This document shows positions 47,992 to 59,597 of a stretch of 64,000 nucleotides of DNA, piece by piece. Source of the DNA: Actinomycetota bacterium (GTDB taxonomy: Bacteria; Actinomycetota; CADDZG01; JAHWKV01). The notes under the pieces are model-generated. The model was not told the origin of the DNA and did not search any database. It was given only the letters and a program-made list of their open reading frames with translations. The stretch covers positions 384,927 through 448,926 of the forward strand of contig JAUJPC010000002.1 in NCBI GenBank assembly GCA_030447305.1, written 5' to 3'. How positions within the stretch are numbered: position 1 is the first letter of the stretch; each line of letters starts with the position of its first letter. Made by a program: the position numbers and the translations under genes.

Positions 47992-48068
47992 GGCGAGGTG
48001 GAGCAGTCTGGTAGCTCGTCGGGCTCATAACCCGAAGGTCGTAGGTTCAAATCCTACCCTCGCAACCA
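47992..48068 (+). tRNA. tRNA-Met (CAT anticodon), initiator-like
   Basis: Cloverleaf readable by eye: acceptor GGCGAGG/CCTCGCA with 1-72 mismatch, D arm GAGC-AGTCTGGTA-GCTC, anticodon stem with three G-C pairs and loop CTCATAA, T arm GTAGG-TTCAAAT-CCTAC, 3' ACCA. Confidence 0.85.
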
Positions 48069-48091
48069 CTGAAATGGCCTGATCTAGGCGT

Positions 48092-48130
48092 AAAAGGCGG
48101 CTTTCCGGGTCGGAAGGTCGCCTTTTGTAT
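48092..48130. terminator. bidirectional hairpin terminator downstream of tRNA
   Basis: AAAAGGCG...CGCCTTTT 8 bp outer stem with nested inner stem, followed by TTTTGTATT. Confidence 0.6.
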
Positions 48131-48503
48131 TCGGCGAAACTGCCGCATGTAGGCCATCCCATTCGATCGCGTGTTCGAGCGACTAAAATCATGCTGCCCT
48201 TAATGGCGGTCGAGTGTTGAGTCCGCTTGTCTGCGTTGGCATCTCGGGCCCGATAGCGAGCCCCTCCAAGCTTGACTGGGGTGTCTTCATCGACAAGATC
48301 CGGTGATGTTCTCGTGGAGCGAGCGGAAGCCTACCCTGGCTCAAGGTCACCTACGAGGTAGCTTTGTGGCGCAGGCATCAGCGAGCTTCCACACCACCAG
48401 GGGGTTGCGGGCTGTAAGTGGTCCGGAACCTTGGCAAGCTGGGGCCGTTCGTCGAGGGTGCCACCAGCATCGTCGACGAAGATTGATATTTATGGGATTG
48501 GCC

Positions 48504-48527
48504 TTTGACACAGCTATTTATGTCAAA
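48504..48527. promoter_or_regulatory. inverted repeat TTTGACA-N10-TGTCAAA in an AT-rich patch overlapping the JAB-E1 stop codon
   Basis: Perfect 7 bp arms; possible protein-binding or recombination site. Confidence 0.3.
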
Positions 48528-49893
48528 AGAAGAAATCCCCCTGGCCCCATTCAGCGCAAGCGGGACAGTCCGGTCGCCGAGGCGGCAGATCACATCGTTC
48601 CAGGACCCCCCGGCGTCCATCGTATTGCCACCATGCCGGCCCACGACCACCTCTAGCGAAACCAGTAATGAGATCGAGGGCACAGTTCACTGCTTCTGAA
48701 GCCAGCACCCCATTCATAGATGCGACCTGGGGCTCTCCTACGGCGTCCGGATTCAGGTCGTATCCCGGCGGACACTCTACCGCTTCCCTAGCGAGCACGG
48801 CGTCGGAGAGAAGCGGGCCACATTGAAGACAAGATGATTCGGGGAGAACCATAACCACTTGGCCGGACGCCGTGAGGAGCCTTCCATCTCTCCCAGTCCT
48901 AATGTTCATTCCGACGTCGATCAGCGGCAGATGATATCGGCGGCAGAAAACATTGATCTGCTGCCGTGCACCGAAAGTGTCTACTCAGGCAATGACTACA
49001 TCCATCCTCTTCAGAGCTTCACGGACGCTCGAGGATGGAAACCGCTCTCGTATTTCTATGATCGAAATGTCCGGGTTGATTGATGTTGCTAGACCAGCCA
49101 TCACCTCAGTTTTGAAGCTGCCCACGTTGGCTCTGGTCGCCCCAACCATTCTTCCCAACTGGACGTCCTCCACTCGCTGGTCGTCAACACCGATCAGCGT
49201 CCCGACGCCTTGATGGGCAAGCTGCTGGAATACATGGGAACCCCCTCCCGAAAGCCCGACCACCCCGATGGTGGCGTCGGCGAGTTGGGCGTCGCTCGGA
49301 GATCCTAGGGCTCTGGTCTGACGATCCAGCTGAAAGCGGGATGGTCGTTTTGAAGACGGCCTGGGCTGCCACCTTGGCGTGCCGACCACTTTCAGACCAG
49401 CAAGATCTCCTATCGATTGCCCGTCTTTCCAAAACCTCCCGGCCGCGGTGCCTTGGCCGAGCACGACCGATCCATTCAGGCGGCCGGAAAGAATCCGGCT
49501 AATCGGGGGAAAGAGTTTGCCCGCATTAGCGAAGTCGGGGGCGGACAGACGCGGTCGCTGGGTATCTCCGTGAGAATGGACAAGGACCAGACCGAAACCA
49601 CCTTGCATGGCAGCTTCGATCGCCCGAGAATTGAATGTCGCAGGCCAAGCTAACTGATGATCTTTCCGGCTTCGATCGGCTTGGTCGGGCGGCACGGGCA
49701 TCCATCTGCCGGCAATGAGGATGAAGTCCTCCGCTGATCTAGCAACTCGGCAAAGAAGAAAACCGCTCTGTTCGCCGATCGAAAAGTCCTCAACGTGGCT
49801 CCGAACGACCTTAAAAAGGGCAGCATTTATCCTGAGCTCGATTTTTGCAATGGCTGGGTCGTGAGCACGGAGTGAGGTTGAGAACTCGATCAA
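48523..49893 (-). CDS. JAB/MPN (JAMM) metalloprotease fused to E1-like (ThiF/MoeB) adenylyltransferase; single in-frame TGA (Sec candidate or nonsense)
   Basis: Track ORFs 48985..49893 and 48523..48909 share one frame, split by TGA at 48985-87; JAMM motif VLVHSHGDTQRPRLSAPD with upstream Glu; E1 Gly-rich loop GVVGLSGGGSHV, Arg-finger region, CLQC and CPAC; TTG start overlaps upstream stop (TTGA). Confidence 0.55.
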
Positions 49894-50258
49894 ATGTCCT
49901 CCCTAAACCGATTGAGCCACAACTGGACCGCCCTGGTCGGGGTCAAAGGCTCCTGAGGCCAGGCAAAGGCAAAGCTAAACTGCCGCCACGATTCCCCCAG
50001 AATCAGCTGGTCGCTGGAGCTGCGGGGCGGTTGCCCACTCGGCGTGAGGGCTGCCACATCGATCCAGAAATCTGGACGGGCATGAGGCCAGTTCACGAAA
50101 CGGACCATCGCTCTAACCGGAGAACCCCAGGGGGGAAGGAGGTGGACCTTTGGGAGAAGAACATGAAGCGGCTGGTCAGGACCAGGAGTCACGTCTAGAG
50201 CCTCCGAAAAGGAATTAGAGAGGTCTTCGACTATGGCCCTGCGCTCGACATCTTCCAT
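49890..50258 (-). CDS. hypothetical protein between Ubl and JAB-E1 genes (possible E2-like or adaptor; no Cys)
   Basis: 122 aa ORF; ATG overlaps Ubl stop (TGATG), stop overlaps JAB-E1 start; no cysteine present. Confidence 0.5.
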   Translation of the reverse strand: MEDVERRAIVEDLSNSFSEALDVTPGPDQPLHVLLPKVHLLPPWGSPVRAMVRFVNWPHARPDFWIDVAALTPSGQPPRSSSDQLILGESWRQFSFAFAWPQEPLTPTRAVQLWLNRFREDI

Positions 50259-57451: not shown

Positions 57452-57464
57452 CAAAAATCCTTTT

Positions 57465-57502
57465 ATTTAGTATGCTAAATATTATGTTTAGAGTACCCTA
57501 AA
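57465..57502 (-). promoter_or_regulatory. two AT-rich inverted repeats (ATTTAG-N4-CTAAAT and TTTAG-N6-CTAAA) upstream of the membrane protein gene; candidate metalloregulator operators
   Basis: Perfect 5-6 bp arms, 14-50 nt upstream of start codon; resemble TTAG...CTAA core of DtxR-family boxes. Confidence 0.35.
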
Positions 57503-58186
57503 TCATTGCCGCAGCGTATGTCAATGCCACGTTGGAGGCAGATGCGGTCGAAGGGACTCGGTCGACGCAGTCGATCGACTCGCGGAACGTTGAGGGAGCA
57601 CCATCGCAGCTCTATTGCCCCCGTGGTCGTTCGGCTTCGCCTCGTCCAGCCACCTCCCCAGCCGCCGGCCTGTTTCACTTAGCAGCGCCGCTCTCCCGAG
57701 GAGCAGGGTTAGGCAGCAAGGCAGGCGGGTCGATCCACTCGGAAGCCTTAGGCCGCAGGGTTACTCCGACAGCTTGATCTCGTAGTTGTGGGTAGGTCTA
57801 GCGGGGGGCGGCGAGGGTGGATCAAAGGAAGATCCGTAGGCCGCAACGAGGCGGTCATGCGGAATTCCAAATTACACTGATCGGTGAAGCCGCCGAAGGC
57901 CTCAGGCAGACGACGTTCATGGTCTTCTGTGAATGTGGCTATGCGGGGTGCCGCGAGAAGGTCGAGGTCGATCTTAGTGACTACGAACGGGTGCGCGCCC
58001 ACCCCCGCCGATTCAACAGGGAGCGAGGCGAGGGAACGTTCACGTGAAGTCTGACCAGACAGCTCCTCGAGTCATCTCCTTCTGGGTGCTCGCCGCCATG
58101 CTCACACTCTTCCTGTTCGCGGCCAGCGCTTGTGGGGTGCCAAAACCCCGATTTCCCACGCTAGGCGGCACAGTCGTACTCGTGAA

Positions 58187-59001
58187 TCAGCCCACCGAGG
58201 ATGTCGCGGCGTTCCAGTCGAAGCGCACCGCGGCGCTCCGGCGGGTCGCCTCGTGACTTGGGTATCTTGAGATCGAGTCCCCGAGAGGCCGTTCCCGACC
58301 GTAGTGATCAACGTAGCCCCGCAACACCCGTTCAAGGTGGCGCCGGCTGCGGATCAGAATCTCGTCCAAGCATTCGCTTCGAACGGTTAGGACCCAACGC
58401 TCCGCGAAAGCGTTCGCTCGAGGTGCCCGGTACGGCGTGCGGATGATCTGGATACCCTCGGACACGCATAGCTCGTCAAAGGGACCGGTGAACTTGCAAT
58501 CCCGGTCGTGGATCAGAGATCGTGGGGAAACGAATCGTCGTCCCGAGCGATGAACAGATTCCTTGCCTGCTGGGTCACCCATGTCGGGGGTGGGCAGTTA
58601 TCCCGGCCATATGGACCTTGCCGGGTGGAAAGCTCGATGAAGAACAAGACGTACAAGGTCTTGAGCCAGACCGTCTCAACGGTGAAGAAGTCGGTGGCGA
58701 TAATCCCGTGCGCCTGAGCGCGCAAGAACTCCGACCAGCTCGGCCCATCCCGACGGGGAGCCGGCTGCAGTCCGTGATCCTTCAAAACCCGCCGGACCGT
58801 GGAGGTCCCCACCCGGATACCCAGCTTGTGAAGTTCACCCTGGATTCGCATGTAGCCCCAGCGTGGTGAAAGAACTAGGGGCGGTGAATGAATCTCGGAT
58901 GAACGGTTGGTCTTCAGACACCACTGCCGCGGACGTAGCCCTGGTTGCTGCCAGAAAGCCTGCCAGAGTCGGCGGGGGAGCAGCTGAGCGCAGGTCACCA
59001 A
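58187..59001 (-). mobile_element. DDE transposase (rve integrase core) remnant, frameshifted into two ORFs
   Basis: ORFs 58513..59001 and 58187..58582 together give WGYMRIQGELHKLG...DFFTVET...IHDRDCKFTG...AFAERWV...YVDHYGRERP; no intact N-terminal HTH found. Confidence 0.6.
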
Positions 59002-59142
59002 TACTGTCGATCAGCCGCAGAGTACTTCGGCCGTTTGACCTGCCCGGCGCAGGATCGCGAGCTGGTGCCGCAAGACGGCGATCTCAACGTCCTTGTGAGC
59101 GTCGGATCCGGGGCGCCCGAACAGAAGCCAGAACGTTCGGCC

Positions 59143-59174
59143 GACGATGACATATAGAGACGATGACATATAGA
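59143..59174 (+). repeat. perfect tandem duplication of a 16 nt unit (GACGATGACATATAGA x2)
   Basis: Read directly; lies just outside the transposase remnant. Confidence 0.8.
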
Positions 59175-59597
59175 AAGGTAAGGGTCATCGGGCGATTATC
59201 GCTGTCAGCCGAGTTTTTGAACCTTACGGGCCGGAGGAAACGCCGGAGCGTGCGGCCAAGCGCGTCGCAGCCGAAGCCGGAAGAAACTTGGCTAATACCG
59301 TTCGCGCACCCTTTCTGCGGCACACAGACTGGGACCGGAGCGCGCGTTAACTGCGGGGGAGAGGGTGCTCCAGGACATGATTACGAGCCTTATCACCCGA
59401 ATCGGCGGGAGGTGGCGCTCCATAACTGCCCATTTAACGAGCTCGCGCGTCAGGCGTCAGACTTGGTGTGTGGGATGAACCATGCATTCTTGAAGGGTCT
59501 GACCAAGGGCCTGGGTAGTGAGTCCGTGCAGGTTTTGCTGGAGCCGTCCGAGGTGGAGTGCTGTGTACGACTTCGTTTGCCTGAATCGTCAAAGGGC

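Follow-up and report, generated by a model that had tools for sequence, protein, structure and literature searches.

What lies downstream of the tRNA-Met (CAT) gene in the genome of an uncultured actinobacterium, and did that DNA arrive as one integrative element? The question concerns contig JAUJPC010000002.1 of a metagenome-assembled genome (MAG) (GC content ~63.6%), of which a stretch of 64,000 nt, hereafter the window, was analyzed; the variable part read here spans 48.07-64 kb (~16 kb). The original prediction was of an old, tRNA-targeted integrative element, lower in GC content, decayed, and ending at position 59200. Our analysis upholds part of this: a decayed, lower-GC stretch of non-core, strain-specific DNA does adjoin tRNA-Met, but its composition is not uniform, it does not end at 59200, its ubiquitin-like protein (Ubl) operon is not intact, its chlorite dismutase (Cld) gene is not truncated, and it does not present as a single integrase-inserted unit. 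The DNA from ~48.13 kb to at least the end of the window is probably a flexible, strain-specific region that accumulated through several independent acquisition, insertion sequence (IS), and deletion events in a hypervariable slot after the UPF0182 gene and an initiator-type tRNA-Met, and that is now decaying under relaxed selection. A recombination hotspot of this kind, with several events, agrees better with the data than a single integrated element does.

The tRNA-Met anchor and the variable slot

The left border of the region is defined by three features:

45104-47947: UPF0182 protein, 947 aa, flanking tRNA-Met upstream; the gene ends in TGA
47992-48068, + strand: tRNA-Met (CAT), the left anchor of the variable region; ARAGORN; Rfam RF00005, 64.4 bits
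48091-48132, + strand: intrinsic terminator of the tRNA gene; 17-bp stem and U-tract, -32.4 kcal/mol, z -4.9 relative to shuffled sequences

The tRNA and its terminator had both been predicted, and both are real: ARAGORN and Rfam agree on one tRNA-Met (CAT), and the terminator hairpin is well below its shuffled counterparts in energy. The tRNA is initiator-like, with three G-C pairs beside the anticodon loop and a 1x72 mismatch, and we take its sequence to be nearly identical to that of Escherichia coli tRNA-fMet. Its first base is G, as in one independent contig (L001), in place of the usual C found in L005, L009, and L019; a hairpin resembling the terminator also lies 3′ of the tRNA in L009. 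Of 29 distant loci, 23 have a tRNA-Met gene downstream of the UPF0182 gene (mostly directly after it, 1-4 kb off in a few), and the same order recurs in L005 and L091-L093.

Relatives of the flanking core gene, UPF0182, reach 80-85% identity; the closest named ones come from Actinomycetota MAGs, and a Logan assembly also contains the identical protein. An alignment-based metagenome search with this protein yielded 80 loci, mostly 40-50% identical, where a single-protein query gave none; a protein search of genome contigs returned a single Parcubacteria locus, 30% identical. Loci are labeled L001-L096, with L087, L088, and L090 being the cassette loci considered below. Synteny was assessed by tblastn of every window open reading frame (ORF) of at least 70 aa against 86 loci around UPF0182 homologs, the comparison with related genomes that had been proposed as a check of the island. 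The outcome is as the island predicted: the upstream order and the tRNA are kept, and nothing downstream is. The interval 35.5-48 kb is syntenic in L003, L004, L005, L008, L091, and L093, with conserved genes for MreB, a CvpA-trypsin protein, a PDZ protease, a sensor kinase, an unknown protein, a DivIVA-like protein, and UPF0182. No ORF at 48.07-64 kb has a homolog in the 86 loci, except for the second IS (in L076) and part of the ORF at 59163-59609 (in L044).

Two relatives extend past tRNA-Met, with UPF0182 proteins that are 80% (L091/L092) and 82% (L093) identical to that of the window. In L092, the slot holds 6.1 kb encoding a methyltransferase, a LuxR/AAA_16 regulator, a FAD monooxygenase, and a small ORF; in L093, it holds 2.0 kb with three small ORFs. 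These fillings are unrelated to each other and to that of the window, and both are followed by orthologous genes for an LLM-class oxidoreductase (87% identical; 11466-12512 in L092). In L005 (66% identity), the slot contains still different genes, one of them for a transposase-like HTH protein. No integrase was found in the fillings of L005, L092, or L093. Because relatives keep the flanks and carry unrelated fillings, the interval after tRNA-Met is a hypervariable slot; in the window, its filling is at least 15.9 kb long, and the LLM gene is not reached by 64 kb. The region marks a hypervariable slot, between tRNA-fMet and the LLM oxidoreductase gene, in an actinobacterial lineage about which little is known.

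Decayed variable regions next to tRNA genes are a familiar, ordinary kind of feature, and several traits of the window region are those of tRNA-adjacent genomic islands and hotspots: its position is immediately 3′ of a conserved tRNA gene; relatives, which keep the upstream flank and the downstream LLM gene, either lack it or have other DNA in its place; and its GC content, GC content at third codon positions (GC3), and tetranucleotides are atypical. As in defense-island-like regions, IS remnants occur together with a Bub cassette, a relic of an OLD/AriA-type ATPase, and many pseudogenes. Unlike tRNA-adjacent islands, the region at 48-64 kb has yielded no integrase, excisionase, or att direct repeat; a block of native composition lies in its middle, and its right border is outside the window; and much of the cargo is metabolic or regulatory (GH15, Rieske, DtxR, Cld, and multicopper oxidase [MCO] genes) rather than mobile or defensive.

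Composition and mosaic structure

GC content was referred to 177 upstream windows of equal size (3.9 kb), and GC3 was expressed as z-scores relative to 31 upstream genes (mean 0.782, sd 0.041). By these measures the region looks like a three-block mosaic, with foreign-looking blocks A and C on either side of a native-looking block B:

48069-52000, block A: GC 0.581 (upstream windows: mean 0.635, sd 0.011, minimum 0.611); GC3 z -2.7 to -5.6 (Bub cassette, IS481 remnant)
52001-55750, block B: GC 0.644; GC3 z -0.2 to +0.8 (Cld, DtxR, MCO relic), host-like
55751-59200, block C: GC 0.601; GC3 z -1.3 to -3.4
59201-64000, block C continued: GC 0.585; GC3 z -2.8 to -5.2 (DUF6789-like, GH15, TPR, and Rieske genes)

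The expected shift after the tRNA is therefore present in the GC and k-mer profiles, but it resolves into three blocks with a host-like middle: the DNA is AT-richer at 48.07-52.0 kb and 55.75-64 kb, and not at 52.0-55.75 kb. The tetranucleotide profile is in line with this mosaic: distance from the upstream core has z-scores of 4.3-4.6 at 48-52 kb and of 2.5-4.2 from 53 to 64 kb. The compositional anomaly continues to the end of the window, and the limit at 59.2 kb is arbitrary.

In the proposed course of events, block A would be an acquired Bub-type (6E) cassette that was joined by a deletion to an IS481 element's 5′ part; block B would be DNA of native composition with a frameshifted Cld gene, an ATPase relic, an intact DtxR gene, and a truncated MCO gene; and block C would be a second atypical block with a second dead IS, reaching to at least 64 kb.

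The predicted collapse in coding density was recovered with a codon log-likelihood model that was trained on long upstream ORFs and under-scores foreign genes: per 4-kb bin, the coding fraction falls from 0.74-1.00 upstream to 0.42, 0.28, and 0.39 at 48-52, 52-56, and 56-60 kb (0.28-0.42 at 48-60 kb), with 0.79 at 60-64 kb. At least 7 of the ~13 recognizable genes in the region are broken, a warning for annotation, in that about seven of 13 genes here are dead. Pfam and other domain scans covered ORFs of at least 60-80 aa across 48-64 kb, six-frame Pfam scans covered five gene-less stretches, and one forward frame of 63.2-64 kb was scanned as well; the gene-less stretches (~3 kb in total) gave zero domain matches.

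The A/B boundary, where GC content climbs from ~0.59 to ~0.65, is occupied by a hairpin:

52169-52264: near-perfect hairpin, 96 nt; 26-nt arms with one mismatch, 44-nt spacer; -66.9 kcal/mol, z -7.5

This hairpin was rejected as a candidate repeated element: it occurs once in the window, and the 96 fetched loci have no copy of it. A relic resembling a miniature inverted-repeat transposable element and a recombination scar are both possible identities.

The decayed cassette of block A

Block A contains six co-directional genes or gene remnants:

48523-49893, - strand: BubCD-like JAB peptidase-E1 fusion, 456 codons, pseudogene; Prok-JAB and ThiF over two ORFs
49890-50258, - strand: BubB-like E2 (UBC fold), 122 aa, no cysteine, invariant Ser95
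50258-50527, - strand: putative Ubl, 80-89 aa depending on start choice
50553-51047, - strand: CapP-like M78 (ImmA/IrrE) metallopeptidase, intact ORF; Peptidase_M78 1.4e-18, PADLOC capP 5.4e-22
51035-51537, - strand: pseudogene of a 202-aa partner gene of the type found in L087; frameshift near 51220, ~first 20 codons gone
51539-51873, - strand: IS481-family transposase N-terminal remnant; HTH_28/HTH_29/HTH_23 and HTH_32, frameshifted, no DDE core

The Ubl operon, which had seemed intact, carries a TGA in its JAB-E1 gene, and the partner gene is both frameshifted and 5′-truncated. JAB-E1 is divided into ORFs of 302 aa and 128 aa in a common frame, with TGA at 48985-48987 and a further 25 sense codons between them. 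Among 17 full-length homologs (434-474 aa), the TGA aligns with Cys in 15 and with Ala in the other two, and every family-invariant residue, including the JAMM and E1 motifs, is retained; the TGA looks like one recent nonsense change (TGY to TGA). Reading of this codon as selenocysteine was considered and rejected because there is no structure resembling a selenocysteine insertion sequence in the 70 nt downstream (z -0.75 relative to shuffled sequences), because the position is non-catalytic and tolerates Ala, and because the cassette has other lesions. UGA is a normal stop in this genome, given that the UPF0182 gene ends in TGA. GC3 of the JAB-E1 gene is 0.55-0.59.

The Ubl and E2 genes are separate ORFs, with the Ubl stop and the E2 start overlapping by 1 nt. 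The Ubl C-terminus, EAIGGGGVS, is invariant in four homologs. A beta-grasp fold gave no signal in Pfam, in a PDB sequence search, or in hhalign comparisons with ThiS and ubiquitin, and the single-sequence AlphaFold2 model is poor (predicted local distance difference test score, 46); we infer a ubiquitin-like fold from gene position and the C-terminus only.

The M78 peptidase is 61% identical to that of the L087 cassette. The adjoining partner gene was recognized by tblastn with its L087 counterpart (L087 6189-6797; E 5e-23): residues 21-127 lie in frame -2 (51537-51217) and residues 126-191 in frame -1 (51223-51035). This alignment begins at the end of the IS481 remnant, and a deletion seems to have joined the 5′ part of the IS481 element to the 5′-truncated partner gene. 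The remnant itself had been correctly assigned: besides its HTH domains and missing DDE core, the joined sequence has IS481 family transposases as its best annotated plasmid matches (38% identity over 99% of its length).

The conjugation pathway is most likely dead in this genome, since JAB-E1 stops at residue 302 and so lacks both its crossover loop and its zinc site, and the regulatory partner is broken. Such decay illustrates the fast turnover expected of defense-type cargo.

The best homolog of JAB-E1 is 63% identical, compared with 80-85% for the flanking core gene, and for this reason the block A cassette looks horizontally acquired and foreign in origin. The sole named source among the closest matches is a Gemmatimonadota MAG; one homolog from an Actinomycetota MAG is 53% identical. 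These identities bear on a further reading, in which the whole region is native ancestral chromosome that has decayed in place and drifted to lower GC content, with nothing acquired. The host-like GC3 of the block B genes (Cld, DtxR, MCO) would suit that view, as would the restriction of mobility genes to dead IS copies and the ordinary, housekeeping-type functions of the GH15, Rieske, and DtxR proteins. We nevertheless regard it as highly improbable: synteny is strong upstream of the tRNA and zero downstream; the M78, E2, GH15, and TPR ORFs are intact and yet have GC3 values 3-5 sd below the host, for which drift of pseudogenes offers no explanation; and the relatives of the cassette are at most 63% identical, with the only named closest source belonging to another phylum.

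Site-specific integration and assembly integrity

If a site-specific recombinase had placed one old integrative element in the tRNA-Met gene, and its integrase and att sites had since decayed, the region would be expected directly 3′ of the tRNA gene, where it is. Such an element would also account for the atypical composition of blocks A and C, for defense-type cargo accompanied by IS remnants, and for the absence of this DNA from relatives, and there is precedent in the Bub operons of Citrobacter and E. coli, which are carried by mobile elements located at tRNA genes (Ye et al., bioRxiv 2024, PMC11601596). The searches for its hallmarks give a different picture. No second copy of the last 25 nt of the tRNA was found at up to three mismatches, nor did a repeat finder reveal one, and downstream matches of the tRNA and its terminator in blastn-short were at chance level, no better than in an upstream control; the suggested check for a direct repeat of the tRNA 3′ end thus gave no tRNA-derived repeat above chance in the 16 kb up to the window end, beyond which the true right end may lie. 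No integrase, recombinase, or excisionase domain was detected in the ORFs scanned across 48-64 kb or in the six-frame scans of five stretches, and the rve-type fragments in the region belong to IS transposases; the original failure to see an integrase or att repeat by eye thus holds under domain scans and repeat searches. Other features that sit poorly with a single element are the 3.7-kb block of native composition in its middle, the presence of two unrelated IS families, and the equally integrase-free DNA in the slots of relatives. We judge one tRNA-integrated element to be unlikely.

Contig ends at the tRNA require separate comment. Logan contigs of run SRR24765285 match the window exactly. 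They break off at 48026, resume at 48037, in the vicinity of the anticodon loop, and break off once more at 51567, within the IS481 remnant; 48026/48037 and 51567 are therefore branch points in the SRR24765285 assembly graph. Many integrases cross over in the anticodon region of tRNA genes, and breaks of independent contigs at that region might be read in favor of integration. A tRNA sequence shared among community members breaks de Bruijn graphs anyway, and explains the breaks equally well; the contig ends at the tRNA in L001, L003, L004, and L006 were accordingly rejected as evidence of an integration site.

The same contig ends raise the matter of misassembly, in which the MAG would have been mis-joined at the tRNA or the IS, block A would come from another organism, and some or all of the pseudogenes would be consensus errors in a low-coverage or strain-mixed region. 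The source is, after all, a MAG, the composition of block A is strongly unlike that of its flanks, neither the junction at 48026-48037 nor that at 51567 is spanned by SRR24765285 contigs, and the DtxR gene was absent from an exact-match look-up. However, one Logan contig from this run (L095) is identical to the window over 48037-51567 and holds the complete cassette, with the same TGA and frameshift, as well as the terminator and 32 nt from the 3′ half of the tRNA; these two lesions are therefore not peculiar to the MAG assembler, being either in the reads or reproduced by a second assembler. In addition, the 48 kb upstream contain long intact ORFs at a coding density of 0.74-1.0, indicating a low general error rate; the truncations (ATPase relic, MCO, IS481) are unlike errors of a consensus caller; and the variability of the slot is shown independently by relatives. 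An assembly artifact is, in our assessment, very unlikely.

Several points weigh against our reading of the region as a multi-event, decaying slot. A right-hand att site or an integrase is possible beyond 64 kb. No relative closer than ~80% protein identity extends downstream, so that the insertions cannot be timed or ordered. The native-like composition of block B could equally come from a donor of similar composition, and the low coding densities include an undercount of foreign genes. No independent contig spans the tRNA or the IS481 junction, leaving the contiguity of the three blocks to the MAG assembly. Finally, the lesions reproduced in a second assembly are those of block A; the exact-match look-up of DtxR, meant to find block B in a second assembly, had no record of it.

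The cassette family and its relationship to Bub systems

Bub operons of Type I carry a fused Ubl-E2, a fused JAB-E1, and a DUF6527 protease, act through Tyr and Ser oxyesters, and are frequently associated with CapH/CapP (Ye et al., bioRxiv 2024, PMC11601596). The window cassette shares with the Citrobacter BubAB-BubCD-BubE system (Type I, 6E.1/DUF6527) a JAB-E1 homologous to BubCD. The JAB-E1 family has at least 272 members (~434-510 aa), and its profile covers chain residues 11-358 of Citrobacter BubCD (9ea4) with E 9.8e-37; BubCD structures rank far above ThiF, MoeB, and eukaryotic E1s. As in Type I Bub, the JAMM motif of the window JAB-E1 is complete, and its E1 nucleotide-binding loop and invariant crossover Tyr (PPGYD) are present; the small upstream protein ends in a Gly run plus two residues to be trimmed; the E2 is of the BubB type, without a catalytic Cys and with an invariant Ser; and the cassette has an associated M78 (CapP-like) gene and adjoins a tRNA gene.

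The window cassette also differs from Type I Bub. Its Ubl and E2 are unfused (no BubAB), and their divergence puts them out of reach of the Pfam models Multi_ubiq and Prok-E2_E. In Type I BubB the catalytic Ser is accompanied by a His and an Asp, and these are not evident at matching spacing in the window E2; the window E1 retains two CxxC pairs. DUF6527 (PF20137, BubE) had no match in the window ORFs, in the six-frame scans, or among the neighbors in the three homologous loci (L087, L088, and L090). The partner is a 202-aa protein that follows a sigma-70 region-4 protein in L087 and has no HTH_3 match, unlike an XRE-type CapH; the window copy of the cassette is, moreover, a pseudogene.

The order M78 peptidase, Ubl, E2, and JAB-E1 is common to L087, L088, and L090. 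Ubl and E2 are also separate ORFs in L088 and L090, and none of 55 E2 homologs is a fusion. The E2 profile recovered 66 clusters at 50% identity among 1.84 billion protein representatives; the weaker matches include longer proteins with Multi_ubiq plus Prok-E2_E (BubAB-type fusion). One match, P0312 (127 aa, E 5e-10), is assigned by Pfam to Trns_repr_metal, a metal-sensitive transcriptional repressor, and represents either a false positive of the profile or an unexpected similarity. A combined Ubl plus E2 query recovered E2 homologs only, and no Ubl family. In the collections searched here, the cassette family derives almost wholly from uncultured-bacterium sequences. The JAB-E1 family has no relatives in IMG/VR, and hence no evidence for phage carriage, and plasmids of cultured strains have JAB-E1 relatives at 34% identity or less only.

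Among the latter is the Bosea vaviloviae plasmid NZ_CP017148, in which a cluster at 266.6-269.0 kb likewise has separate Ubl and E2 genes and no DUF6527 annotated beside them. Unlike the window cassette, JAB and E1 are separate genes there, the Ubl is a 235-aa multiubiquitin, and identity to the window JAB-E1 is 34%. The surrounding locus (L096; 262.8-272.0 kb) has an unfused cluster for multiubiquitin, a 109-aa protein, a 172-aa protein, and ThiF, again with no DUF6527 annotated, located between a RES-Xre toxin-antitoxin pair and a pair encoding a UvrD helicase and a PD-(D/E)XK nuclease. Unfused multiubiquitin-E2-JAB-E1 clusters therefore exist in cultured bacteria.

With respect to regulation, the M78 gene (PADLOC capP, 5e-22) directly precedes the effector operon, as in CapH/CapP (ImmR/ImmA, DdrO/IrrE) switches, and the L088 peptidase carries a fused XRE HTH domain (HTH_3-M78). 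Unlike in CapH/CapP switches, no CapH-like XRE gene was recognized in the window, its genes are all co-directional rather than divergent, and the partner lacks a recognizable DNA-binding domain; HTH_3 gave no match in the partner gene adjoining the window M78. At 5680-9305 of L087, from an actinobacterial MAG, a gene for a 170-aa sigma-70 region-4/ECF-like protein is followed on the same strand by the 202-aa partner and M78 genes, which suggests a switch of the sigma/anti-sigma-like/protease kind rather than a classical CapH repressor.

We tentatively propose that the cassette represents an undescribed third Bub (6E) architecture, which may comprise a free Ubl of 77-80 aa ending in GGGG-VS, a free Cys-less BubB-type E2 unseen by Pfam, a BubCD-type JAB-E1, no BubE, and an M78 peptidase with a novel 202-aa partner (preceded by a sigma-70 region-4 protein in one other actinobacterial locus), the window copy having been recently inactivated. 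Published Bub catalogs were seeded on DUF6527, and would therefore miss a cassette that lacks BubE. By extension from the Bub literature, in intact relatives the M78 module would respond to stress by relieving repression of the operon. Removal of the C-terminal Val-Ser of Ubl by the JAB domain would uncover Gly; the E1 would activate Ubl by adenylation and bear it on the crossover-loop Tyr of PPGYD; and the Cys-less E2 would receive Ubl at its invariant Ser95 and hand it to target lysines. The cassette would extend Bub systems to an unfused, BubE-less form with a Ubl and an E2 that are missed by current Pfam and PADLOC models. If intact homologs are active, it may be asked how Ubl-target conjugates are reversed without BubE, and whether oxyester chemistry (E1 Tyr, E2 Ser) is general.

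Genes and relics of blocks B and C

Block B contains four genes or relics, all on the + strand:

52793-53321, + strand: clade-2 Cld pseudogene; one 1-nt insertion near 52930 (ctcGcgcgg)
53848-54078, + strand: C-terminal relic of an AAA_15/OLD-GajA-AriA-type ATPase; AAA_15 positions 291-374 of 374
54582-55253, + strand: DtxR/IdeR-family metal-dependent regulator, intact; Fe_dep_repress, Fe_dep_repr_C, FeoA
55255-55712, + strand: MCO relic; Tat signal and Cu-oxidase_3 piece in different frames

The Cld gene had been thought possibly truncated; it is full-length and split by the insertion. The 3′ ORF matches Chlor_dismutase profile positions 85-183, and removal of one base restores a full-length match to 9gtj/3qpi (E 9e-67; residues 7-183 of 193 in 9gtj). 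Its GC3 (0.775) is host-like. The ATPase is truncated, as first supposed: the relic matches AriA (4.4e-14) and GajA (2e-10) in PADLOC, and six-frame Pfam scanning of 53310-53830 for the rest of the protein was empty. The DtxR regulator gene, correctly described as intact, has host-like usage (GC3 0.817, z +0.8; codon log-likelihood ratio 0.256 per codon). The MCO gene is frameshifted with its Tat signal in the other frame, again as proposed, and is also cut off near 55700, with Cu-oxidase_3 positions 16-53 of 119 only.

Block C begins with ORFs on the - strand and continues to the end of the window:

55770-56231, - strand: 153-aa ORF with a signal-peptide-like N-terminus; GC3 0.643, z -3.4; no assigned family
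56312-57454, - strand: 380-aa polytopic membrane protein, intact ORF; no family match
58187-59001, - strand: second transposase pseudogene; HTH_21 and rve_3 in two frames, degenerate N-terminus
59598-60071, - strand: DUF6789-like membrane protein (Pfam)
60071-61888, - strand: GH15 glucoamylase/trehalase-like gene (Pfam)
61972-63228, + strand: TPR protein (Pfam)
~63316 to beyond 64000, + strand: DUF2231-Rieske [2Fe-2S] fusion, running off the window end (Pfam)

The 380-aa membrane protein is encoded by an intact ORF, as had been stated. The second transposase remnant is likewise real. L076 has an uninterrupted counterpart of 363 codons with 54-56% identity to the remnant, and the Streptomyces matches of the remnant are annotated as 'integrase core domain' proteins. 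The L076 copy (16763-17851) is an apparently intact transposase of this family located ~3.4 kb downstream of a UPF0182-linked tRNA-Met, which hints that the family recurrently lands in the tRNA-Met slot. The genes at 59598-64000 have GC3 values of 0.57-0.67 (z -2.8 to -5.2) and tetranucleotide z-scores of 2.8-4.2.

Just upstream of the second IS is a perfect tandem duplication of a 16-mer (59143-59174; GACGATGACATATAGA x2), which overlaps the start of the ORF at 59163-59609. A small ORF at 57817-58047, with no Pfam match and with otherwise dead DNA around it, carries the motif FCECGYAGCREKVEVDLSDYERVRAHPRRF, presumably akin to the CxC...C...EYE.VR-type motifs of small actinobacterial proteins.

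Upstream of the UPF0182 gene, the DivIVA-domain gene at 42964-45042 has a tetranucleotide z-score of 3.6-3.7 and an AT skew of up to 0.46, and is kept in relatives; the probable cause of its composition is a biased or repetitive sequence, not a foreign origin. Farther upstream, in 24000-32000, the coding fraction falls to 0.74 in two bins, where several short ORFs occur.

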